Source: Candidatus Binatia bacterium
Lineage (GTDB): Bacteria > Desulfobacterota > Binatia > Bin18
Length of the DNA stretch: 64,000 nucleotides
Assembly: GCA_963664395.2 (NCBI GenBank)
Contig: OY761159.2
Coordinates: forward strand, 4,448,001 to 4,512,000
Direction of reading: 5' to 3'
The stretch's first letter is position 1. Every line of letters begins with the position of its first letter. This document shows, piece by piece, positions 44,031 through 60,578 of the stretch. A program made the position numbers and the translations under genes. The notes beneath the pieces were generated by a model, which was given only the letters and a program-made list of their open reading frames with translations, had not been told where the DNA came from and did no database searches.

Positions 44031-45184
44031 ATGGCACGAATCTTGGGCAATACCTCTTGAGCAAAGAGTCGCAGGCTCTGCGTCGCGAGTTCATCCGGCA
44101 GCGAGCCAAACTGAAACATAGCAAGCAAGGTTCCGCGTTTGCCCTCTTCGCGTTGACGCCTAATTTGGGCGATCACACTTTCCGGACCGCCCAGAATGAC
44201 CGTCCCATTCTCAATCCCTTCGTCCACGCTATAGCCCATGGCCTTGCCCGTCTCTTTACTGGTGACATTCTTCAGCCAATCGCGCAGGCCGTTTACACTC
44301 ATATGTCCGGGGATAAGCGAGACAGTGCCGATATCAAACGACGCCAGCGCGCGGAAGAAGTGGTACTCTAAATGCGATTCAGCCTCTTGGCGTGCCTTTT
44401 TATCGCTCTCGCCAACGTATAAGGCGCAGATCGAGGCAAACATATCATCAAAATCCTCGGGGACAGTGACGCTTTGCTCTTGAGCCAGCCGATAATACGT
44501 CTCGTGCACAGAGCGCGTACGCTCAATACTGACCCACGGCGTGGCAATATAGGTGCGATTCTTGACCGCAAAATCGAGCGAGTCCAAGCTGTTGGCCGCC
44601 ATCCAGATTTTCGGATAGGGCTGCTGCAAGGGTTTAGGCCAGATATTGTAGTCCCGAACGCGGTAAAACTCGCCATCAAAATCAAACGGCCCCTCACTCG
44701 AAAGCGCTTTCAGGACTAAGGAAAAACCTTCCCGAAACCGAGCCTGAGATTCCGCCGGGTTGACATTGTAGGACAGGTATTCGGTCGGAAAACCACGCAG
44801 CGCCCCCCAAATAAAACGACCATTGCTCAGGTGATCCAGCATTGCGACCTCTTCCGCAATGGCAAGCGGGTGGTGTAACGGAATGCACGTGCCGGTGACA
44901 GCCACCTGAAGATGCTTCGTGCGTTGTGAGACGGCTGCGGCCATGAGGTGAGTCGAGGGCACCATGGCACAAAATCCGCCCCCGCCATGATGCTCCTGAC
45001 AGGTGAAGCCATCCAACCCAAGCTCATCACTGAGTGTGATCCGGTTCAACTCCTGCTCAAGTAAGGCGTTTCCCTGAACAGGATCAAAATACTTATTCGA
45101 AAGGGGATACGATCCAGGCGCACCAACGGGAGCATCGTCAGGCAGGTGCGGCCAGCCAAACAGCACCATATTAAAGACTCTCAT
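44027..45184 (-). CDS. LLM-class flavin-dependent oxidoreductase
   Basis: QEHH, IAEEVAMLDHLSNGR, WPKPLQQPYP.IW. Confidence 0.92.
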   Translation of the reverse strand: MRVFNMVLFGWPHLPDDAPVGAPGSYPLSNKYFDPVQGNALLEQELNRITLSDELGLDGFTCQEHHGGGGFCAMVPSTHLMAAAVSQRTKHLQVAVTGTCIPLHHPLAIAEEVAMLDHLSNGRFIWGALRGFPTEYLSYNVNPAESQARFREGFSLVLKALSSEGPFDFDGEFYRVRDYNIWPKPLQQPYPKIWMAANSLDSLDFAVKNRTYIATPWVSIERTRSVHETYYRLAQEQSVTVPEDFDDMFASICALYVGESDKKARQEAESHLEYHFFRALASFDIGTVSLIPGHMSVNGLRDWLKNVTSKETGKAMGYSVDEGIENGTVILGGPESVIAQIRRQREEGKRGTLLAMFQFGSLPDELATQSLRLFAQEVLPKIRAI

Positions 45185-45999
45185 GCTCCTCCCCCCTCCT
45201 GTGGCGGAACGAAGGTGTTAATCGCCTGGATAACGGCCTCGCAATCCTCCACATACGGCAGATGTCCGGCCCCCGGAATTGTCACGCTGTAAGCGCGCGG
45301 TAGGGATGAAGTCCACAGAGCGGCGTGTGATGGATCCAGGAGGGGGTCCTGCTCTCCCCAGACGACCAGCGTCGGTGTGGTTAAAAGATGCAGGTAATAG
45401 CGCAGGCTGCGACTGTGGAGGTAGGGGTCAAACACCAGTCGGATGCTCGCGTTGCGGTTGTTGATGAATGCGTCGGTCCAGTTACTCAGGTCGGGAACAT
45501 ACAGTGAGGCCCGCTCCGGAGCTGCACCCGTAAAAAAATACCCCTGCAAGCGCGCCGGGTCTGTATAAAAGAGATTTGGGACCTTGGTCCAATCCTGCAC
45601 TAAGCCGAGCGGGCTAATCAAAACCAGCTTGGCAATCCGCTCCGGTCTGAGCAGAGCGAGCTCAGCCCCTACCCATCCACCCAGGCATGAGCCGACGACA
45701 ATCGGCCGTTCGAGCGACAGCGCATCAAAGAATTGCAGCAGCAACACCGCCAAGTCATGCGGTGTCTTCGCCCACTCTGGCAATGAGGATTGTCCATAGC
45801 CCGGCAGGTCGGGAACAAACACCTGGAAACGTTCGGCTAAGCGCTGGTGGTAGTCCATCCAGCCCGGCTCGCCCCACAACCAGTGGAGCCATACCAGTGG
45901 AGGCCCTTGGCCAGCCTGTTGGTAGCAAAACTGGATGGTGGCCCGCGCCGCGTCATCTCCACGCAACTCAAGCGTTTCCTGTTGCGGAGTAATGTCCAC
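45181..45999 (-). CDS. Alpha/beta fold hydrolase
   Basis: GQGPPLVWLH, PDLPGYGQS, GSCLGG, WGEQD, AGH. Confidence 0.9.
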   Translation of the reverse strand: MDITPQQETLELRGDDAARATIQFCYQQAGQGPPLVWLHWLWGEPGWMDYHQRLAERFQVFVPDLPGYGQSSLPEWAKTPHDLAVLLLQFFDALSLERPIVVGSCLGGWVGAELALLRPERIAKLVLISPLGLVQDWTKVPNLFYTDPARLQGYFFTGAAPERASLYVPDLSNWTDAFINNRNASIRLVFDPYLHSRSLRYYLHLLTTPTLVVWGEQDPLLDPSHAALWTSSLPRAYSVTIPGAGHLPYVEDCEAVIQAINTFVPPQEGGGA

Positions 46000-46060
46000 A
46001 GATTCCCTCTTTTGCTATTAGGGTTAGCACAAGCTAGGCAATTCTACAGCCTGTAATGAT

Positions 46061-46121
46061 AGCAGACATCCTTTCTTCGAGAGCACACGGCTGGCGATCT
46101 CCCGATTAATGGCCGACACCT
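46061..46121 (-). repeat. Degenerate displaced copy of NUDIX gene 3' end (copy C)
   Basis: 52/61 identity to 49881-49941; translates VSAINREIASRVLSKKGCLL. Confidence 0.85.
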
Positions 46122-46143
46122 ATCAGTTCTCCCTACCCCGTGG

Positions 46144-47730
46144 TTACGGTCCCGCGCCATCAGGATCATGCGAGACAATGACAAAGTTCTGGCTGTTCTG
46201 CTGCCACTCCAGCGTCACCGTCTCGCCTGTCGTGGGGAAGTCCGGCACCATACATTCTCCCACGGCCCCCCGTAGAAACTCCGTCCCCAGGGTCGTCACC
46301 GTCACGGTTGCGCGGCCTAACTCTTCGTCGTCAACGTAGGCCACGACTTCGTGCACCCCGTCGTCCAGCCGGTTCCAGTTGAACAACAACCCAAACCCGT
46401 TGTTCGTGTCCCCACAAGCATCTTGGGTATCCAGCCGCTCCGTCCCATACGCCGCCACGTAGCGCGCGACCTCTCCGCCCTCGGTCGTGATCTCGATCTC
46501 CACCTCGTCCCCCTCGCACACCCAGCCCGACAGCACCCCAATCCCGCTCTGGAATGAGTCCGCCCCCGGGTTCTCCAGATAGCCCCGGGGCGCCGCAGAC
46601 GGCGTGCTGCTCCCGCCGCGCCTAGGGGGCGGGCTCCTCCGCGCCGCCCGCGTCACCCTGACGTTATCGTCCCGGCACAAGTCCAGGGGGTTGGTGATGA
46701 ACCTGTCGTAGAGGACCGGCGGCAGGGTGAGCTCGGTGAGGGGGTTATTGCACAGATCCAGGAACGTCAGCGCGGTGAGTGGGTCGAAAATACCCGCCGG
46801 CAGGCTGCTCAGGGCGTTCCTCTCCAGTATCAAAGCGTTCAGCTTGGTGAGCCCGGCGAAGTCGCCCGGCTTGAGGCTGCTGATGTTCTGTGAAGTCAAA
46901 TCCCACGTCGATCTATCGAGGCTCGTCAGATGCGCCGGCGTCACGTCGGCGCACGTGGTGACGGAGGCATCCGCCTCCATGACCTCCTCCACGATGGCGT
47001 CGCGCACTTGTGCCGTGCGGGCGCATATGCCCCCCGACAACGTCGTGGCCTGGTCGGTATCCGAGGGGTCGCCGGGGCCGAGTACGTTGCGTGCCGAGAC
47101 GCGGTAGTGGCGGGTGTCGCCGGGGTCGAGGCCGGTGTGTGCGTAGGTGGTGTCCGTGTTGCCGGTGTTGGCCTCGAGGTCGGTCCAGCTGCCGTTGCTC
47201 CCGTCAGTGGACACCTCGATGCGATAGCCGGTGATGGGATTGTTGCCGGTGTTGGCCGGAGCGGTCCAATCGAGGTTGATCTGGTTCGGTCCGTTGGCCG
47301 TCGCGGTGAGGCCGGTCGGCGCGCCGGGGACGGTGACGGTTGGTGCCTCCCGGGTCACCGTGACGGTATAGGTCTTCACCGCGCCGCCGGTCTCGGCCGT
47401 GACCTTCACCTTGATGGTGTTCGGGCCGACGACGAGCGTCATGTCGAGCGGGTTCGTGTCCGTGTTCGTGTCCGTGTCGAATTCCGGGTCCAGGATGCCG
47501 GCGCTCACCGTGAGATCTCTCAGCGTCGCGAGGGTCCGGGGGTCGATGACCGACACCGTGACGGTGTCGGTGCCGGTCGCTCCAAGGGCCGCCCCGTGAC
47601 CGTCAGCGTGAACGCCAGGTCGCCTGCGGTCGAGGGGGCGGTGAAACTCGGGCGCGCGGTGTCGGCGCCGGTGAGCGTGACCGTCGCGCCGCTCGCCTGC
47701 CTCCACGCATAGATCACGTTCGTGCCCCAC
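46144..47730 (-). CDS. C-terminal part of surface protein: cadherin-like sandwich, FN3, LRR, 1x conserved C-terminal domain (frameshift ~47590)
   Basis: PGAPTGLTA..WTAP..ITGYRIE..YRVSA (FN3); L..NALSSLPAGIFD (LRR); GYLENPG..QNFVI. Confidence 0.8.
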   Translation of the reverse strand: MGHERDLCVEAGERRDGHAHRRRHRAPEFHRPLDRRRPGVHADGHGAALGATGTDTVTVSVIDPRTLATLRDLTVSAGILDPEFDTDTNTDTNPLDMTLVVGPNTIKVKVTAETGGAVKTYTVTVTREAPTVTVPGAPTGLTATANGPNQINLDWTAPANTGNNPITGYRIEVSTDGSNGSWTDLEANTGNTDTTYAHTGLDPGDTRHYRVSARNVLGPGDPSDTDQATTLSGGICARTAQVRDAIVEEVMEADASVTTCADVTPAHLTSLDRSTWDLTSQNISSLKPGDFAGLTKLNALILERNALSSLPAGIFDPLTALTFLDLCNNPLTELTLPPVLYDRFITNPLDLCRDDNVRVTRAARRSPPPRRGGSSTPSAAPRGYLENPGADSFQSGIGVLSGWVCEGDEVEIEITTEGGEVARYVAAYGTERLDTQDACGDTNNGFGLLFNWNRLDDGVHEVVAYVDDEELGRATVTVTTLGTEFLRGAVGECMVPDFPTTGETVTLEWQQNSQNFVIVSHDPDGAGP

Positions 47731-49403
47731 GGGCTGCTGCTGCTGCCGGCGAGCGCCACCGCGGCACCCGTCGCCACCCTTTGGGTCTCGCCCGCCTCCG
47801 CCGTTGGCGCGAAGGGCTCGGGGTTGGAGTTCTTCTGCAGGGTCAACGTCGTCAGCGTCGTGAGATCCTGGAAGACGTTCGCCCGCAGGCTGCTCAGGGC
47901 GTTGTTATTCAGGCACAACGTGTCCAGCGTGGTGAGCCCGTCAAAAATTCCCGCCGGCAGGCTGCTCAGGGCGTTGTATGACAGATTCAGGTCGTCCAGC
48001 GCGGTGAGCCCGGTGAACAGGCCCGCCGGCAGGCCTCTCAGGGTCAGGGCGTTGTTTTGCAGAGTCAGGCGCTCCAGCTCGGTGAGCCCGGCGAAGATAT
48101 TCGCCGGCAGGCTGCTCAGGGCGTTGTATGACAGATTCAGGTCGTCCAGCGCGGTGAGCCCGGTGAACAGGCCCGCCGGCAGGCCTCTCAGGGCGTTGTT
48201 TCGCAGAGTCAGCTGGTTCAGCGCAGTGAGCCCGGCGAAGTCGCCCGACTGGAGGCGGCTGATGCTCTGGTTACGCAAATTCAGGATCTCGAGGTCCGCC
48301 AGATGCGTCGCCGTCACGTTAGCGCACGTGGTGGCCGCCGTGGCTGCCACGATGGCGTCGCGCACTTGTTCCGTGCGGGCGCATATGCCGCCCGTCCGCG
48401 CCGGGTACAGCTTGCTCGTCCGCGCCTCGTCGAAGCCCGTATTGTCCTGGAACGCGACCCTGACCTTGAAATGCTTGCCCACGTCGGCGGCGACCAGGGT
48501 GTGGGTGCTGCTCGTCGCTCCGCTGATCTCGGTCTCGACCGCCATGTCGTCGACCCGTATCCACTGGTAGCTGTAGCTGACGCCGGCGAGCCCGTCGGCA
48601 TCGGAGATCCCCGTCGTCACGGCGGTCAGCGTATCCCCGACCATAGTGGCCGTGCCGGTGATGGTGGGCAGGCCCGTGGCCGGGATGTTCTTCGGGGTCG
48701 CGTTGACCGCGATTCGATACATGGAGCCAGTGCTTTGCCATGAGCGTTGAGAGGGTATGGGTGCGTACCGGTACGAGTACGAGTCGTCGTGAATCTCCCA
48801 CCCGGCCGCCGCGCCGGTGTCTTCGTCTGTCTCAGTGGTGGTGCCGATATTTACGCCTCTCCTATTAACGCCAATAATCGACCGACTCTTTATATCGATG
48901 GTCACGAAATACGCCGTGTTCGGCGTAAGATCGATCATCGTGCCGGTCGGAAGGGTGAAGGTCGCGGTTCCGGCGTGGGTTCTAGTGAAGAGCGGGTTGA
49001 CGAATGTCACCCAGTCGGTGCTGCTTGGGCGGTCCACGCTGCCCGTTTCCCTCGTCCGCAGACTGACCCTCAGGTCGGTGATGGTGGTGGGATCTCCGAA
49101 GCTGTCCATGTGGAGCTGCACGCTGGTCAGACTGTAGCCCGCCCGCTGCGGGCCGATTTGAAACCCTTGGGCACTGGCGAACGAACCTCTCTGTCGGAGC
49201 GTCGTCGTCCCCTGCCCCAGGTTGCTCACCAGGGTGGCAGCCTGCGCCGGGGCGGGCAGCGCCACGAGCAGCAGACCGAGCAGTATCCAGCCCGCCCGCA
49301 CCCCCCACAGGTGCTGACGGATGGGCGGCAATGTGCGGGAAAGTTGCGGTTCCCTAGCCCCGTGCCGTCCCGGCCACGAGCCGCCGGTCCAGAGATATAC
49401 CAT
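47520..49403 (-). CDS. N-terminal part of secreted LRR/Ig-like surface protein
   Basis: Signal LLVALPAPAQA; ATGLPTITG..DADGL..YQW module; GICART..TCA cap + ~6 LRRs; PKD-like domain. Confidence 0.82.
   Translation of the reverse strand: MVYLWTGGSWPGRHGAREPQLSRTLPPIRQHLWGVRAGWILLGLLLVALPAPAQAATLVSNLGQGTTTLRQRGSFASAQGFQIGPQRAGYSLTSVQLHMDSFGDPTTITDLRVSLRTRETGSVDRPSSTDWVTFVNPLFTRTHAGTATFTLPTGTMIDLTPNTAYFVTIDIKSRSIIGVNRRGVNIGTTTETDEDTGAAAGWEIHDDSYSYRYAPIPSQRSWQSTGSMYRIAVNATPKNIPATGLPTITGTATMVGDTLTAVTTGISDADGLAGVSYSYQWIRVDDMAVETEISGATSSTHTLVAADVGKHFKVRVAFQDNTGFDEARTSKLYPARTGGICARTEQVRDAIVAATAATTCANVTATHLADLEILNLRNQSISRLQSGDFAGLTALNQLTLRNNALRGLPAGLFTGLTALDDLNLSYNALSSLPANIFAGLTELERLTLQNNALTLRGLPAGLFTGLTALDDLNLSYNALSSLPAGIFDGLTTLDTLCLNNNALSSLRANVFQDLTTLTTLTLQKNSNPEPFAPTAEAGETQRVATGAAVALAGSSSSPWGTNVIYAWRQASGATVTLTGADTARPSFTAPSTAGDLAFTLTVTGRPLERPAPTPSRCRSSTPGPSRR
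47952..48193. repeat. Exact 92-bp duplication (150-bp period) within LRR coding region
   Basis: 47952-48043 = 48102-48193. Confidence 0.9.
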
Positions 49404-49462
49404 TCATTCTCCTCCGCTCTTTTTCTTGTACATGCTGTCTGTTTCCCTGCGGGCTTCCATTG

Positions 49463-49506
49463 CCATACAACATTCCGCCGCCCTTGTCCCTACCAAAATT
49501 AAGGGA
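49463..49506 (-). promoter_or_regulatory. Conserved upstream motif (copy 2)
   Basis: 34/44 identity to 4630-4673. Confidence 0.55.
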
Positions 49507-49822
49507 GTGACAGAAAAAATACGGAAAAAATGCGGGCGGACCGAACATACCTGGCCGGCCCCTCCTGGCTACGGGGAGAGGCCCCCTCGGCGGGCGGCGG
49601 AGCGGTGTGTTGTTTGCTCTATGCGGCAGGCGACCCGACACAGCGGCAGCCCGGGCAGAGCCTTTACAGGCAGACAGGGGGGGAGAAAGCAAAGGGCCGG
49701 GGTCGTTTGGGAGCGGACAACTCACAATGCCATGTAGCGGAATGGTCCCGTCCATTCCGGCGCAAGAACGTCACCCCTGTGAAAACGTGATCCGGCATGA
49801 CTACGGCTTATCGGGAAACGCT

Positions 49823-49947
49823 CTAACCGACAAAGAGCGTATAGGGTTTACCGTTCAGGTGGATGAGCTCTTGCGGCTCCAGCAGACGTTTTTCCTGAGA
49901 GAGCACCCGGCTGGCGATCTCCCGGTTAATGGCCGGCACCTGCTCCA
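49823..49947 (-). repeat. Displaced copy of NUDIX gene 3' end including stop (copy B; att-like)
   Basis: 125-bp ungapped match to 53072-53196; 8 synonymous and 2 non-synonymous codon differences, different stop. Confidence 0.93.
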
Positions 49948-49985
49948 GGAGTACGCTCCTCCTGCCCGCCCAAGCCCTACGGCGG

Positions 49986-52900
49986 TTACGGCCCCATCTC
50001 CTCCGGGCCATGCGAGACAATGACAAAATTCTGACTGTTCTGCTGCCACTCCAGCGTCACCGTCTCCCCAGGCATCGGAAAATCGTCTACCACACATTTC
50101 CCCTCGGCCCCCCGCAGAAACTCCTCCTCTTCCCCCTCCCCCACGGTCGTCACCCGTACCGTCGCCCGGCCCAATTCCATATCGTCTACATAGGCCACCA
50201 CCGTATGCTCCCCATCGCCCAAGCGGTTCCAGTTGAACAGCAATCCAAAGCCGTTGTCCGTGTCGCCACACACCGCTTGGGTGTCCAAGCGCTCCGTCCC
50301 ATACGCCGCCACCTGCCGCTCAACCTCTCCCCTCTCGGTCTCGATCTCTATCTCCACCTCCTCGGCTGCACACACCCAGCCCGAGAGCACCCCAATCCCA
50401 CTCTGAAACGAATTCGGCCCCGGGTTCTCCAGATACCCTATGTCGGCTGCCCCGGTCCGGTTGTTGCCGGTCCGGTTGTTGCCGGTCGGCGCAGCTCCGT
50501 CCGTGAGCACGAAGTTCTGACGCGGCTGTTGCCACCTCAGCGTCACCTGCTCCCCAGACATCGGGAAGTCTTCAACCACGCATTCCCCCGCCACATCCCG
50601 CAGAAACGCCTCGCCCAGCGTCGTCACCGTTACCGTGGCCCGGCCCACCTCCACGCCATCCACCACGGCCACCACAGTATGCGTCCCATCGCCCAGCAGA
50701 TTCCAGTTGAACAACAGCCCAAAGCCGTTGTCCGTGTCCCCACAGATATTTTCCGTATCCCCCCGCTCCGTCCTGTAGGCCGCCGGCTGCGAACTGCCGT
50801 TGATCGCTATCTCCACCTCCTCCGCCTCGCACACCCAGCCCGACAGCACCCCAATGCCGCTCTGGAAAGAGTCCGGCCCCGGATTCTCCAGATACCCGAC
50901 CACCAGGGCCGTCGCTAAGGTATACGCTCCGGTCCGGCTCCCATTGCCTTCGACGGCGACCAGGACCGGCCCCGCGGCTACGCGCACGCTCAGCCAAAAG
51001 TTCCGCCGCTCCCCGCCACTGGCCGCCCTCGCCACCTCCTCGCCGTCTTGCCAGACTGTACCTACGGTATCGGTCGATCCGCTCGTCTCCACCACCAATA
51101 CCCCGGCCTGGGGCAGGGTAATCTCGAAGTAATCGATATCGTCCGCCGTGTTGATCTGCCCAGCCGTGGACGACGCCCAGGGGGCAGACTCGCCGAGCAG
51201 GACCGTCGTCGCTTGCGCGGGCGTGTCGCCATGCCGGTCGCGACTGCCGCCGCCGCCCCCTCCTCCACCGGACGGTGGCGGCGGGGGCGGCGGTGGCGGC
51301 GGGGGCGGTGGCGGTGGGGGCGGTGGGCGAACGGGAACGATCTTGAGTATCTTGTCCTGGCCATTACCGTTCGAGGTGGAGACATACAGCGCACCGGCAG
51401 GGCCGAGCATGGGCGTCCGCAGCCGACCGTGCGTATTGTCGAGTTCAGGCACGACCACTTGACTCACGAAGGTGCCATCATCAGTGAACTCGAAGACACG
51501 CAGCGACTTATTCTCGAGCGTGGCCACTGCCAGTCGTCCCTCCCACTCGCCCCAGCCGTTCCCCTCCAGAAAGATGCCGCCACCGGTGGCCAGGGTCGGG
51601 TCCCCCGACGACCACTTGGCCGCAATGGCGTTGGGGAACTTCACGAGGTCGGTCATGGGGACGCTTTCGTTGTATCCGGGCACGGGGTCCCAGCCATAGT
51701 TGCTACCGGCGACCAGCAGGTTGATCTCGTCATCAATTGTCGGGCCGTGCTCTACCGACCACATCTGGCGCGTGCCGGGTCGCAGCGCCAAACCCTGTAC
51801 GTTCCGGTGGCCATAGGTGTAAATCAGCGGTGAAGAAGCGAACGGGTTCCCCGGCGCCCCGGCACCCGTCGATGCGTCCACCCGCAGAACCTTTCCGCCG
51901 AGCGAATTCAGATTCTGCGGGGTCGTCCCGACTGCTGCGTCACCGGTTGCGATCCACAGATAGCCGTCTGGGCCGAAACGCAATCGGCAGCCGCCGTGCC
52001 GGCCAGAAGTAGCAGAGGCGGGGATGCCGCCAACGAGAGGATCGACGCTTCGGGTGGCCGCAGTGTATGCGGCGTTAAGGGTCCAGGCAATCACCTGCAC
52101 TTCCGGCCCGGTGTGGGCCTGACAGGTGTAGAAGCGTCGGTTAGAGGCGAAATCCGGATCGACGATAATCGCCATCAACCCAGATTCTCCCAAGACGAAC
52201 AGGTCACTGAAGTCGGCGGTGACGGTCTGGACCGTGCCGTCGGTGAGTCGGCCACTCAACTTGCCTCCCCGCTCGGTGAACAGCATCGTCCCGTCGGGCG
52301 TAAAGGCGAGATCCCAGGGAATGTTGAGGCCGGAGACGAGCGTCGTGACCGTGATCTCCGGCGCTACCGCCTGGAGCGTGAAGGTCAGCGTCGCGACCGG
52401 CTCGTTCGAGAACTTTCCTATCCCCTTGATGCTGGTGATCGTACCTTGCGGCGAGGTGGCGGTGTTGTTCAGCGAGAACTCCGTGCCCTCCTCCGTCCCC
52501 GCGTCGTACGGAAACAGCTCTACCGTCTTTGATGCCAGCCAGTCTCCCTGCGCGTCGAGCAGGGACAGTCCGGAGACGCCGGCAAACCAGTCCGGGCTCG
52601 GGGCAATCATCGTAACCAGGGTCACTCGGGGATAAGTGGCAGTGACCGTAAAGTCGACCGTGGCAGCCACAGTCCCCCCGGATGGGATGGATTGCTCAAT
52701 GACGGCGCCCGCATTGGAACCAGCGGCGGTGATCTCGGCCTTGAGGGCACTCGTGCCCCCCACTTCTGCCATGCTCTCGATCCCGGCACTGGCCGTGCCG
52801 CCACTACTCCAGAAGATGACCTGGTCGTTGTGGACGGCACCGACCAACGGCGAGAAATGCGCCCCGGAGGGCACCCCGTAGGGGGTCGCAGTGGTGGTCC

Positions 52901-53009
52901 ATTTGCCCTCAAAGGTCACCTGATAGGTGGCCGATTGCGCGTGGGCAATGGCGGCCTGCCCCACAATCAGCAGGAGAGCAAAAGTCACGAGCAGCATGTT
53001 TTTGTTCAT
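49986..53009 (-). CDS. Secreted spondin_N + PQQ-dependent sugar dehydrogenase (GSDH) + PPC-like + 2x conserved C-terminal domain protein
   Basis: HFSP, MIAPSPDWFAG, YDAGTE (spondin); PWDLAF, RHGG.RL.FGPDG, GHRNVQG, DEIN (GSDH); poly-Pro linker. Confidence 0.9.
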   Translation of the reverse strand: MNKNMLLVTFALLLIVGQAAIAHAQSATYQVTFEGKWTTTATPYGVPSGAHFSPLVGAVHNDQVIFWSSGGTASAGIESMAEVGGTSALKAEITAAGSNAGAVIEQSIPSGGTVAATVDFTVTATYPRVTLVTMIAPSPDWFAGVSGLSLLDAQGDWLASKTVELFPYDAGTEEGTEFSLNNTATSPQGTITSIKGIGKFSNEPVATLTFTLQAVAPEITVTTLVSGLNIPWDLAFTPDGTMLFTERGGKLSGRLTDGTVQTVTADFSDLFVLGESGLMAIIVDPDFASNRRFYTCQAHTGPEVQVIAWTLNAAYTAATRSVDPLVGGIPASATSGRHGGCRLRFGPDGYLWIATGDAAVGTTPQNLNSLGGKVLRVDASTGAGAPGNPFASSPLIYTYGHRNVQGLALRPGTRQMWSVEHGPTIDDEINLLVAGSNYGWDPVPGYNESVPMTDLVKFPNAIAAKWSSGDPTLATGGGIFLEGNGWGEWEGRLAVATLENKSLRVFEFTDDGTFVSQVVVPELDNTHGRLRTPMLGPAGALYVSTSNGNGQDKILKIVPVRPPPPPPPPPPPPPPPPPPSGGGGGGGGSRDRHGDTPAQATTVLLGESAPWASSTAGQINTADDIDYFEITLPQAGVLVVETSGSTDTVGTVWQDGEEVARAASGGERRNFWLSVRVAAGPVLVAVEGNGSRTGAYTLATALVVGYLENPGPDSFQSGIGVLSGWVCEAEEVEIAINGSSQPAAYRTERGDTENICGDTDNGFGLLFNWNLLGDGTHTVVAVVDGVEVGRATVTVTTLGEAFLRDVAGECVVEDFPMSGEQVTLRWQQPRQNFVLTDGAAPTGNNRTGNNRTGAADIGYLENPGPNSFQSGIGVLSGWVCAAEEVEIEIETERGEVERQVAAYGTERLDTQAVCGDTDNGFGLLFNWNRLGDGEHTVVAYVDDMELGRATVRVTTVGEGEEEEFLRGAEGKCVVDDFPMPGETVTLEWQQNSQNFVIVSHGPEEMGP

Positions 53010-53071
53010 GGGTGTATTGAGAGAACCGACTATTCTCCAACAGAATCGGAGCACTATCGAAGGCATAGCCA

Positions 53072-53560
53072 TCAGCCAACAAAGAGCGTGTAGGGTTTGC
53101 CGTTCAGATGGATAAGCTCTTGCGGCAGCAGCAGGCATTTTTCCTGAGAGAGCACCCGGCTGGCGATTTCCCGGTTAATGGCCGGTACCTGCTCCAACCG
53201 TTCAATCTGTTCCAGGGTCAGATACTCGGCGCGGTCAACCTCTTCCATATCGGGTGTGGGCTCACCGCTCAGCGGCGTCATCAGCAGGACGATATACAGA
53301 CTGTTGCCAATGTCGGGATCACACCGATTGCGCAGGCCAATGACGCCTTGCACCTCCCCGGTCACGCCGGCTTCCTCCCGGACCTCACGCACAACGGCCT
53401 GCTCAATGGTTTCGTCCGGCTCGACAAAGCCGCCCGGCACCTGCCAGTTCCCCCTGCCCCGCCGTGAGGCCCGACGCACGAGCAGGAGACGCTTGTCACG
53501 CACGACCGCACCACCAACGCCAAGGTTGTAACCGCGGTTATACCGTTCGGGGATGGGCAT
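53072..53560 (-). CDS. NUDIX hydrolase
   Basis: Nudix box GGFVEPDETIEQAVVREVREEAG. Confidence 0.95.
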   Translation of the reverse strand: MPIPERYNRGYNLGVGGAVVRDKRLLLVRRASRRGRGNWQVPGGFVEPDETIEQAVVREVREEAGVTGEVQGVIGLRNRCDPDIGNSLYIVLLMTPLSGEPTPDMEEVDRAEYLTLEQIERLEQVPAINREIASRVLSQEKCLLLPQELIHLNGKPYTLFVG

Positions 53561-55025: not shown

Positions 55026-55026
55026 G

Positions 55027-55225
55027 TAGGGGCAACCCACCCCGGCCCTTCGGGCCACCCTCTCCCACAGGGGGCGAGGGTAAAAAAAGCCCTTCTCCCG
55101 CTGGGAGAGGGGTTGGAGTGAAGGCAAAGCCGCCTGCCAGCCGTCGGGCAATCTAATTTGCATCACCCCTCCTTGGAGGCCTGTCCTGAGCCCAGTCGAA
55201 GGGGCGGGGTGGGTTGTCCCCTGCC
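55027..55225. repeat. Cluster of REP-like palindromes including chimeric units
   Basis: 55027-55125 pair; 55165-55225 contains gtcctgagcccagtcgaagg. Confidence 0.75.
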
Positions 55226-55250
55226 CGCATGCACGGTCGCCGCGCTCCTC

Positions 55251-57758
<2,508 letters not shown>

Positions 57759-57775
57759 GGCGTCACTTTAACCCC

Positions 57776-57809
57776 ATCCTGCCACGTATGCCCCCCTAAA
57801 ATGGGAGGA
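57776..57809 (-). promoter_or_regulatory. Conserved upstream motif (copy 3)
   Basis: atcctgcc..cccccctaaaatgggagga vs atcccgcc..cccccctaaaattagagga at 4639-4673. Confidence 0.45.
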
Positions 57810-57819
57810 ATCGCCGCAC

Positions 57820-58075
57820 TGGCGGGACCGTATCTGGCCGAGGCGGGCTTCTCCGGGGCGTGGTGGCGGCAGGTGGGCGAGACCATCAACGGCCATCTCA
57901 TCCGCACCTTTGGCTTACACTTTCCGGGGGCACGCACGAAACGCGGCCTCCTCACCCACATCGCGGCCAAGCTGCTCGCTGTTAATGTCGGGCTCTGGCT
58001 CAATCTCCTCATCTTCGGCCGGCCCCCTTGGGCCTTTGCCACCCTCTTCCCCTGCTAATAATTCACATCACACGT
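57820..58075 (+). mobile_element. Internally deleted IS982-family transposase remnant with putative right end
   Basis: GPYLAEAGFSG..W joined to RQVGETINGHL..FGL.FP.ART.RGLL..IAAK..A.N.G.WLN..FGRP; end attcacatcacacgt. Confidence 0.7.
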
Positions 58076-58096
58076 CCACGGAGGGGAGCGGAACAT

Positions 58097-58150
58097 ATCC
58101 CCTCTTGAGAGGCCTGTCCTGAGCCCAGTCGAAGCGGCGGGGTAGGTTGT
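58097..58150. repeat. Chimeric REP-like palindrome
   Basis: Near-identical to 55165-55215. Confidence 0.75.
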
Positions 58151-58179
58151 CGGGTCCCACCGGCTTGCAACGCAGGCGG

Positions 58180-60470: not shown

Positions 60471-60578
60471 GGAACCCACCCCACCGCTACGCGGCACCCC
60501 TCCGGGGAGGGGATAATCAGGACCACCCCTCCTCGGAGGGGCGGTCCTGAGCTTGTCGAAGGGCCGGGGTGGGTTCCC
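60471..60578. repeat. Inverted pair of REP-like palindromes (second is chimeric)
   Basis: ggaacccacccc..cacccctcc..gagggg / cccctcc..ggagggg.ggtcctgagcttgtcgaagggccggggtgggttcc. Confidence 0.78.

Follow-up and report, generated by a model that had tools for sequence, protein, structure and literature searches.

How did two genes for secreted proteins come to be stacked behind a NUDIX hydrolase gene, with a further copy of that gene's 3' end behind each of them? The question is raised by the genome of a sponge-associated Binatia bacterium, in a stretch of 64,000 nucleotides of contig OY761159.2 (the window). In uncultured sponge symbionts the complement of surface, eukaryote-like and defence genes is large and variable, and the route by which such genes are acquired is poorly known. 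Read along the minus strand, the locus consists of the NUDIX gene with its working end (copy A), the secreted-protein gene SP2, copy B, the secreted-protein gene SP1, copy C, what is left of the ancestral spacer and a gene for an alpha/beta hydrolase (Table 1).

Table 1. Features of the NUDIX locus in minus-strand order; positions are those of the window.
Feature	Position	Strand	Remarks
NUDIX hydrolase gene (anchor)	53072..53560	-	162 aa; Pfam PF00293, E 3.7e-24
Copy A, working NUDIX 3' end	53072..53196	-	last 41 codons and TGA stop
Spacer, NUDIX stop to SP2 start	53010..53071	-	homologous to the spacer before the SP2-like gene of G004 and G001
SP2, secreted multidomain protein	49986..53009	-	1007 aa; PF06468 (1.8e-40), PF07995 (1.1e-70)
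SP2 3' UTR, junction J-B	49948..49985	-	short hairpin; stops exactly at the start of copy B
Copy B, displaced NUDIX 3' end	49823..49947	-	reading frame intact, TAG stop
Spacer, copy B to SP1	49404..49822	-	holds pieces of genome-wide short repeats
SP1, secreted LRR/PKD/cadherin-like/fn3 protein	46144..49403	-	one C-terminal domain
Shortened SP1 3' UTR, junction J-C	46122..46143	-	
Copy C, truncated NUDIX 3' fragment (oldest)	46061..46121	-	lacks the final ~65 nt of the gene and most spacer sequence
Remnant of the ancestral NUDIX-abhydrolase spacer	46000..46053	-	alignable to the final ~55 nt of the empty-site spacer of relatives
Alpha/beta hydrolase gene, conserved downstream flank	45181..45999	-	Pfam PF00561

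An initial annotation of the locus had reported that the NUDIX 3' end recurs twice, and both the repeat families and a genome-wide search bear this out. Copies A and B match over 121 nt (53076-53196 against 49827-49947) at 91% identity, with E 8.7e-43 in a search of the whole 5.04 Mb genome; copy C, 61 nt long, is 85% identical to B and 82% to A (E 1.7e-10 in a whole-genome search) and, in a short alignment, is nearest to the allele of genome G021 (89.8%). The next best match in the genome reaches only E 0.0125, so the three copies lie far beyond chance. Two further details of that annotation hold: the homology of both extra copies starts at nearly the same point, the L-E-Q codons in B and V-(P/S)-A, some 10 nt further on, in C, and one gene with the C-terminal domain occupies each interval, SP2 between A and B and SP1 between B and C. 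Copy A ends in TGA and copy B in TAG; TAG, not TGA, terminates the NUDIX gene in all 12 of 12 close relatives. Orthologues of the whole gene are present in 13 genomes of the genus at 92-96% amino acid identity. In a comparison of sequences, the spacer between NUDIX and SP2 is ~26 nt shorter than its counterpart in G004 and G001, and the one separating copy B from SP1 contains stretches of 24-46 nt with further occurrences at more than 10 genomic positions; its first bases resemble, by eye, the G001 sequence after the NUDIX stop.

SP2 comprises a signal peptide, a Spondin_N domain, a GSDH propeller and a Pro/Gly linker, and the family's C-terminal domain occurs in it twice; its start was set by the signal peptide and by agreement with the start in G004 and G001. 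SP1 falls into two overlapping open reading frames, 47520-49403 and 46144-47730, with an apparent frameshift inside a PKD-like domain (47520 to 47730). For its residues 1-230, neither 27 genomes of the genus nor a metagenome collection yielded an orthologue, the latter giving one domain-level match only. The C-terminal domain belongs to a large family, with 139 domain matches in 85 ORF ends of this genome, other members also lying in tandem. It has no match in Pfam or NCBIfam, a PDB sequence search returned nothing below E 0.29, and the protein atlas gave a weak Ig-like (Big_7) lead only. Beyond the family's canonical end, SP1 and SP2 have a ~35-nt tail in common, which is absent from other paralogues among the matches listed, and in both genes this tail and the 3' UTR are joined to a NUDIX fragment. 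The SP2-like genes of G001 and G004 have this tail too, with different right-hand junctions (e.g., in G001 the SP2 3' UTR again follows the gene and there runs into a different gene); it therefore marks a module without a fixed attachment end.

Comparison with related genomes, which the initial annotation had suggested as a check, found an empty site in 10 of 16 relatives, where the abhydrolase gene directly follows NUDIX across a spacer of 72-159 nt, and other cargo in the remaining 6. Such empty or differently filled sites rule out a shared ancestral arrangement, and they support the NUDIX 3' end as the insertion point. The breakpoint of the duplicated flank differs between species: it lies at -125 in this genome (G000), at about -56 together with 70 nt of spacer in G005 and G002, at -33 in G001 and exactly at the stop codon in G004, and these positions do not support the idea of one attachment site. 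G001 and G004 share NUDIX, spacer and SP2-like gene with the present locus and have other right ends; because protein identity is only 69-79%, they are not the donors. No donor of SP2 could be named either, because its GSDH-bearing relatives, at other loci in G012 and G018 (74-75% amino acid identity) and broken in G007 (65%), lack the NUDIX fragment. Neither a donor lineage nor a single-islet intermediate was found in the 27 genus genomes and the metagenome collection.

The displaced ends carry a record of selection. Ten codons differ between copies A and B, 8 by synonymous and 2 by non-synonymous change, exactly as first counted; by the Nei-Gojobori method, Sd is 8 and Nd 3 over 39 codons (pS 0.27, pN 0.034, pN/pS 0.12). 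The proposal that both copies were functional gene ends is upheld by this ratio, with a binomial P of 0.001 against full neutrality, although against neutrality of B since the split the pair taken alone reaches only P 0.02. The peptide of copy B matches variants found in working orthologues. Since the A/B differences are almost only synonymous, copy B was a working gene end until recently. A and B are identical at 111 of 128 nt, while identity to other species reaches 117 of 128, so that the two are no closer to each other than to alleles elsewhere. Segment-wise identity to 12 relatives revealed no clear switch that would mark a recombination tract in NUDIX; G006 is as close to copy A as to the 5' part of the gene. 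Decay grows with distance from the gene, from the functional A through B, which has kept its frame, to SP1 with its apparent frameshift and the truncated C. This gradient fits the two successive additions that had been postulated, and the stack is probably the product of imported modules that accreted one after another, the newest adjoining the gene. Each module would consist of a secreted-protein gene and a NUDIX end of ~125 nt that came with it, and every arrival would push the previous NUDIX end downstream: copy C would be the original end, B would have arrived with SP1, and A, the end now in use, with SP2.

The NUDIX gene is not alone in this. A displaced-end scan of this genome alone, based on crude ORF calls and run without a control genome, found 24 genes with a second copy of their own 3' end 0.26-8.7 kb downstream, of which 22 copies are fragments; comparable cases with 5' ends number only 9. 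Identities at these loci go down to 71%. Pooled over 18 ungapped pairs, pN/pS is 0.23 (P 1.7e-11), and by these tests displaced and working ends differ like alleles of diverged lineages, unlike decayed duplicates. The cargo between the ends is diverse, no recombinase match (PF00589, PF00239) falls inside the 22 fragment intervals, and in the two cases checked the cargo is absent in 8 of 8 relatives. The genome thus presents many anchors and variable joints without a dedicated recombinase.

Could the modules nonetheless be decayed integrative elements of the CIME type, inserted site-specifically at NUDIX -125, bringing surrogate gene ends and relying on an integrase, if any, encoded elsewhere? 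Copies A, B and C are direct repeats of the target's 3' end that flank each islet as attL and attR would, the topology of three copies and two cargo genes with the coincident left edges of B and C fits tandem site-specific accretion, and synonymous divergence is equally expected of surrogate ends. The absence of recombinase genes from both islets, claimed at the outset, is confirmed by a six-frame search of the whole genome, which gave five matches to PF00589 and one to PF00239, all more than 1 Mb from the islets; the five PF00589 genes still speak for the integrative reading. Against it, no recombinase lies beside the islets or in the cargo ORFs of five relatives, and at 57 NUDIX loci tblastn, a search of limited sensitivity here, detected no integrase-like sequence that could be cognate to this site. 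The core site tentatively proposed for a tyrosine recombinase, CCGGTTAATGGCCGG, a CCGG-N7-CCGG motif, is present in copies A and B, but it coincides with the PAINR codons, has trivial 4-bp arms and is lost in 10 of 12 relatives; the pattern occurs 10 times in the window. No short core is common to the independent insertions, whose NUDIX breakpoints vary among species, and G001 and G004 carry the SP2 module with other right-hand junctions. Each of the ~21 further genes with the same footprint would need a site specificity of its own, and the matches listed for 40 other genomes include no second NUDIX end that might represent a free attP. Taken together, these observations make the integrative reading rather unlikely. 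Integron cassettes were also considered and dropped: there is no integrase, and the repeats are gene ends.

Two explanations would do without import of modules altogether. A plain tandem duplication of the NUDIX 3' end with its secreted-protein gene, followed by exchange of one N-terminal part with one of ~80 paralogues, draws on the size and tandem habit of the C-terminal-domain family and predicts continuous homology through the units. Homology is indeed unbroken from the C-terminal domain via the stop and the UTR into the NUDIX fragment, but it goes no further: the two genes are unrelated over their first two thirds, and so are the spacers in front of them, of 64 and 420 nt. A duplication would moreover leave no NUDIX fragment behind the last secreted-protein gene, yet copy C is there, and it agrees poorly with the equidistance of A and B from each other and from other species. 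As copy B was a working end until recently, under purifying selection and not in neutral decay, duplication is very unlikely. An assembly artefact, the joining of two strains' versions of the locus end to end in a metagenome-assembled genome of 5.4% estimated contamination, would account for the allelic, synonymous divergence of A and B, which is what two co-assembled strains would show, and for an arrangement of three copies and two cargo genes that is unique among 58 loci. It is hardly credible: the shared segment spans just 121 nt, is 91% identical and nowhere matches perfectly over more than ~30 nt, which is too little to mislead an assembler that yielded a 4.8-Mb contig, the junctions are specific sequences and not contig ends, and the footprint is repeated at 21 other loci at identities down to 71%. 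In addition, among 11 sequencing runs from five studies listed for the region, several contain 21-89% of its words, a measure of presence and not of order.

For the accretion of modules, an integrase-free, homology-anchored route of insertion is modestly favoured, with the cell's own homologous recombination machinery as the putative enzyme instead of an integrase. DNA of a related Binatia lineage would pair with the resident NUDIX gene, which serves as the homology anchor; at the first insertion, the distal end of the imported DNA would be joined illegitimately at -125 inside the resident gene, so that the resident's last 125 nt survived behind the cargo. The second module may then have been added by unequal homologous exchange, in which the displaced NUDIX fragment behind the secreted-protein gene of one allele paired with the working NUDIX end of the other. 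From the footprints we infer RecA-dependence, the order of these steps and donors from a related lineage. Several observations count against this route, among them the lack of a donor lineage or single-islet intermediate in the genomes searched and of a visible recombination tract in NUDIX. Both junctions in the present genome fall at the same NUDIX position, exactly as a site-specific enzyme would predict, and the homology-anchored model accounts for the coincidence only via one founding junction and unequal exchange; the five tyrosine recombinases encoded in the genome, three of them not obvious Xer proteins, could act in trans. ComEC and DprA are encoded as well, which is only permissive because most control genomes have both too. 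A broader conjecture, and a long shot, is that sponge-associated Binatia possess a dedicated system for inserting cargo at the 3' ends of many host genes and supplying replacement ends, either without a classical integrase or with a flexibly targeted one that acts in trans; in that case the NUDIX stack would be one of ~22 active sites, and the ~85 secreted proteins with the C-terminal domain one class of cargo.

Whichever route applies, the NUDIX locus and the ~21 loci like it constitute a readable footprint of acquisition, a displaced end that still resembles the working allele. Any genome can be screened for this footprint, which reveals the order in which modules arrived and is independent of finding integrases. 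If homology-anchored capture is the true mechanism, gene flow among co-resident symbiont species would build accessory islets without mobile-element machinery; if the process is enzyme-driven, it would represent a new kind of mobile element.

Several known systems resemble parts of this picture. Tandem site-specific accretion has been described for CIME-IME tandems (PMC5704250) and for tycheposon arrays (bioRxiv 10.1101/2020.12.28.424599). As reported there, in accretion of the ICESt1/ICESt3 and CIME type and in tycheposon arrays at tRNA genes the direct repeats are the target's 3' end, the newest element adjoins the gene, and integrase-less remnants lie between the repeats, as at NUDIX. By contrast, no integrase-bearing partner was found at the NUDIX site, the breakpoints vary and there is no conserved core. 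Homology-facilitated illegitimate recombination, described in natural transformation of Acinetobacter, Pseudomonas stutzeri and Streptococcus pneumoniae (PMC5361080, PMC2884548), likewise inserts foreign DNA without a recombinase, by means of one homologous anchor and a nearby illegitimate joint; in those accounts it was shown in the laboratory with short inserts, whereas the NUDIX case is read from footprints in an uncultured organism. The same model was put forward to explain Rhs orphans and T6SS immunity arrays (PMC5361080) and, more generally, variable segments (PMC2884548).

In the lpl cluster of Staphylococcus aureus, a tandem paralogue cluster that evolves by units covering a 3' region, a spacer and a 5' region (PMC2568036), the conserved recombining unit spans the gene border, as it does at NUDIX, where it comprises the C-terminal domain, the stop, the UTR and the next element. 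Unlike the lpl unit, the unit at NUDIX closes with part of a housekeeping gene to which it has no relation, and SP1 and SP2 are not full-length paralogues. In the displacement arrays of Rhs, CDI and T6SS effector-immunity genes, as characterized in PMC5361080, a conserved upstream anchor receives a new 3' part that pushes the old one downstream, and the displaced orphans open with a short stretch of the conserved region, without an integrase; correspondingly, the displaced NUDIX fragments begin inside the conserved anchor and lie downstream of the working copy, the older ones more decayed. The NUDIX stack differs from these arrays in that its anchor is a housekeeping gene whose new end encodes the same peptide instead of a polymorphic toxin tip, its cargo is a separate secreted-protein gene and not a toxin-immunity pair, and its footprint is spread across ~22 unrelated genes.

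At the NUDIX locus, the 3' end of the gene is found three times: as the end in use (copy A), as a displaced end (copy B) and as an oldest, truncated one (copy C), with the secreted-protein genes SP2 and SP1 lying in between. The repeats are as the initial annotation described, A and B matching over 121 nt with 91% identity and C, 61 nt long, being 82-85% identical to the others; they are the sole strong matches to this gene end in the 5.04-Mb MAG G000, of which the window is C1:4448001-4512000, and the region is present in several sponge metagenome runs. Copy C lacks the gene end and runs into the final ~54 nt of the ancestral spacer, the spacer's first part being gone as well.

Features of the locus in minus-strand order, with examples of the C-terminal domain (window positions)
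Feature	Position or length	Strand	Remark
SelD fusion gene	60447-58180	minus	
SP3 (secreted-protein gene)	57758-55251	minus	
DUF420 gene		plus	between SP3 and GST-like gene
GST-like gene	54447-53599	minus	
NUDIX gene	53560-53072	minus	ends in copy A, TGA stop
NUDIX-SP2 spacer	62 nt	minus	
SP2	53009-49986	minus	
SP2 3' UTR	38 nt	minus	
Copy B	49947-49823	minus	TAG stop
Copy B-SP1 spacer	420 nt	minus	
SP1	49403-46144	minus	
SP1 UTR remnant	22 nt	minus	
Copy C	46121-46061	minus	
Ancestral spacer remnant	54 nt	minus	between copy C and alpha/beta hydrolase gene
Alpha/beta hydrolase gene	45999-45181	minus	
C-terminal domain, examples	46147-46584; 49989-50897; 55239-56120		

A ~140-aa C-terminal domain is present twice in SP2, along with a signal peptide, Spondin_N and a GSDH propeller, and once in SP1, whose other domains are LRR, PKD-like, cadherin-like and fn3. 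SP1 consists of two overlapping ORFs split by a frameshift (47520-47730, within the PKD-like domain), which is either real or a consensus error. The C-terminal domain, matched by no model in Pfam or NCBIfam, gives 139 tblastn matches at 85 ORF ends across the genome, mostly as two tandem copies at the extreme end of large secreted proteins and in most cases with the same last ten residues; it may serve this lineage for sorting or anchoring. G+C content is 62-68% over the SP islets (46000-53000) and SP3 versus 54-58% in the flanking housekeeping genes. Inside SP3, five exact 15-nt tandem repeats (56164-56238; family D7) encode a repeated five-residue linker, and near the window start two adjoining ~350-nt copies with 97% identity (1587-2280; genome 4449587-4450280) lie beside another SP gene. 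A short GC-rich repeat, REP-like in appearance, lies behind SP3 as an inverted pair (55029-55052, 55197-55220) and recurs, also at 58099-58151 and 60524-60575, past the stop codons of adjacent genes and numerous SP genes.

Relatives differ at the site between NUDIX and the hydrolase gene. Among the 16 genomes in which both genes could be placed (G015, G025 and G022, where the stretch compared has no hydrolase gene next to NUDIX, were left out), the site is empty in 10, the hydrolase gene following after 72-159 nt (G007, G021, G006, G011, G012, G023, G016, G024, L047, L052), and holds other cargo in the remaining six: an SP2-like gene lacking the GSDH part in G004; a 135-nt repeat element, an SP2-like gene and a substrate-binding-protein gene in G001; one or two substrate-binding-protein genes in G002, G005 and G018; and ~0.8 kb in L051. 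With no arrangement common to all, the comparison that the initial annotation had proposed supports insertion at this site: the present arrangement is not ancestral, and the site is a hot spot. Flank duplications accompany several insertions, their starting points varying among occupied sites (junctions were compared partly by eye): spacer sequence of ~65 nt, starting right at the stop codon, flanks the inserted gene of G004 on either side; the last 33 nt of NUDIX are repeated after the 135-nt insert in G001; and, ahead of the hydrolase gene in G005 and G002, the final ~56 nt of NUDIX and a further ~70 nt of spacer recur in decayed form. A second hot spot is the interval from DUF420 to the SelD fusion gene (55026-58179; L048 4375-8535), which is 12 nt long in G007, accommodates SP3 here and reaches 1.4-4.4 kb in other species. 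The G004 version includes an ATPase, a protease-like ORF and, displaced and at 75% identity, a second copy of the final 56 SelD codons.

Ten codons differ between A and B, eight of them synonymously (Nei-Gojobori Sd 8, Nd 3, pS 0.27, pN 0.034). Had B drifted freely since the split, ~62% of changes would be non-synonymous, and three or fewer of 11 has a probability of 0.02 (0.001 under full neutrality), in line with the earlier proposal that both were functional gene ends. Changes specific to B, polarised by eye on a printed alignment of 12 orthologues, are five synonymous ones and one Cys-to-Arg, which a functional orthologue has as well. The agreement of A with B, 111 of 128 nt, is no closer than their agreement with other species (up to 117 of 128). 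From this substitution pattern and lack of closeness, B was part of a working NUDIX gene during almost the whole of its separate history, which counts against duplication in place and supports the initial suggestion of two functional gene ends, which would be alleles of different lineages brought together.

The same footprint, a gene end displaced downstream with cargo in between, recurs on contig C1, compared with itself in 24-kb pieces and filtered with crude ORF calls. By these calls, 23 genes besides NUDIX have their 3' end present twice (48-243 nt, 71-99% identity), the second copy 0.26-8.7 kb downstream, versus only nine comparable 5'-end cases. The second copy is a fragment in 22 of 24, its frame closed within 60 codons upstream, and the repeats stop at, or a few bases past, the stop codon. 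Over 18 ungapped pairs of gene ends, pS is 0.34 and pN 0.079 (P = 1.7e-11 against a half-neutral model). Among the cargo are a YcjX-like/DUF697 pair, an MmeI-type enzyme and another SP gene (2402 aa); in two cases compared with eight relatives each, cargo and second copy are absent from all. In one of the two, a gene at 1.149 Mb, fragment and flank are collinear with the gene end and flank of G016 and G021, as displacement would predict. The youngest case is a 7.3-kb islet (L143, G000:C1:1149221-1156765) in which genes of the YcjX-like and DUF697 kinds and two unknown ORFs lie between 141-nt repeats of an abhydrolase gene end, 99.3% identical; its cargo is absent in 8/8 relatives. Another islet flanked by a displaced gene end (G000:C1:2954011-2958060) holds a 1046-aa ORF whose first residues we take to resemble the Cas9 RuvC-I motif.

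A six-frame search of the whole genome yields five PF00589 matches and one PF00239 fragment, the nearest more than 1 Mb from the NUDIX locus, so the islets indeed lack a recombinase; by coordinates, no PF00589 or PF00239 match falls within the footprint intervals. In five relatives, the ORFs carried as cargo encode binding proteins or are SP genes, and in a tblastn comparison of modest sensitivity the genome's five recombinases had no match at 57 NUDIX loci. The CCGG-N7-CCGG motif, put forward as a tyrosine-recombinase core, coincides with PAINR codons, lacks its 4-bp arms in 10 of 12 relatives and occurs ten times in the window; it was rejected.

Sequential accretion of imported modules is very probably how the stack formed; we slightly favour the reading that this took an integrase-free, homology-anchored route. 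Incoming linear DNA from a relative would carry part of a gene and its stop, followed by cargo, and would replace a stretch of the resident gene through one homologous crossover within it and one illegitimate joint; a joint falling inside the gene would leave the resident's own end behind the cargo. Such a scheme would account for variable breakpoints, allele-like divergence, the many target genes and the lack of integrases, and for repeats that stop at the point where the likeness of donor and recipient ends. The rival is site-specific accretion of CIME-like elements, a process described in PMC5704250 and in a tycheposon preprint; the main point in its favour is that both junctions in the NUDIX stack are identical. 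The far ends of the SP genes bear on this. SP1 and SP2 have in common an extension of ~35 nt past the end point of other paralogues (among the matches listed, theirs runs 77-86 nt through the stop, the others at most 55 nt), and the same tail and hairpin-bearing UTR stand behind the SP2-like genes of G001 and G004, but continue into a substrate-binding-protein gene in G001 and into the NUDIX stop and spacer in G004. For the junction of SP UTR and NUDIX position -125 (counted from the stop) at B and C, a single origin followed by copying is therefore most likely; this junction is not a constant end of the SP module. Under the homology-anchored scheme, one extra unequal homologous exchange, in which a displaced fragment pairs with a working end, would make both junctions alike. 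A homologous crossover with an illegitimate joint has been proposed in PMC2884548 for variable segments generally, and the NUDIX stack resembles T6SS immunity arrays and Rhs orphans, for which PMC5361080 proposes the same homology-anchored scheme.
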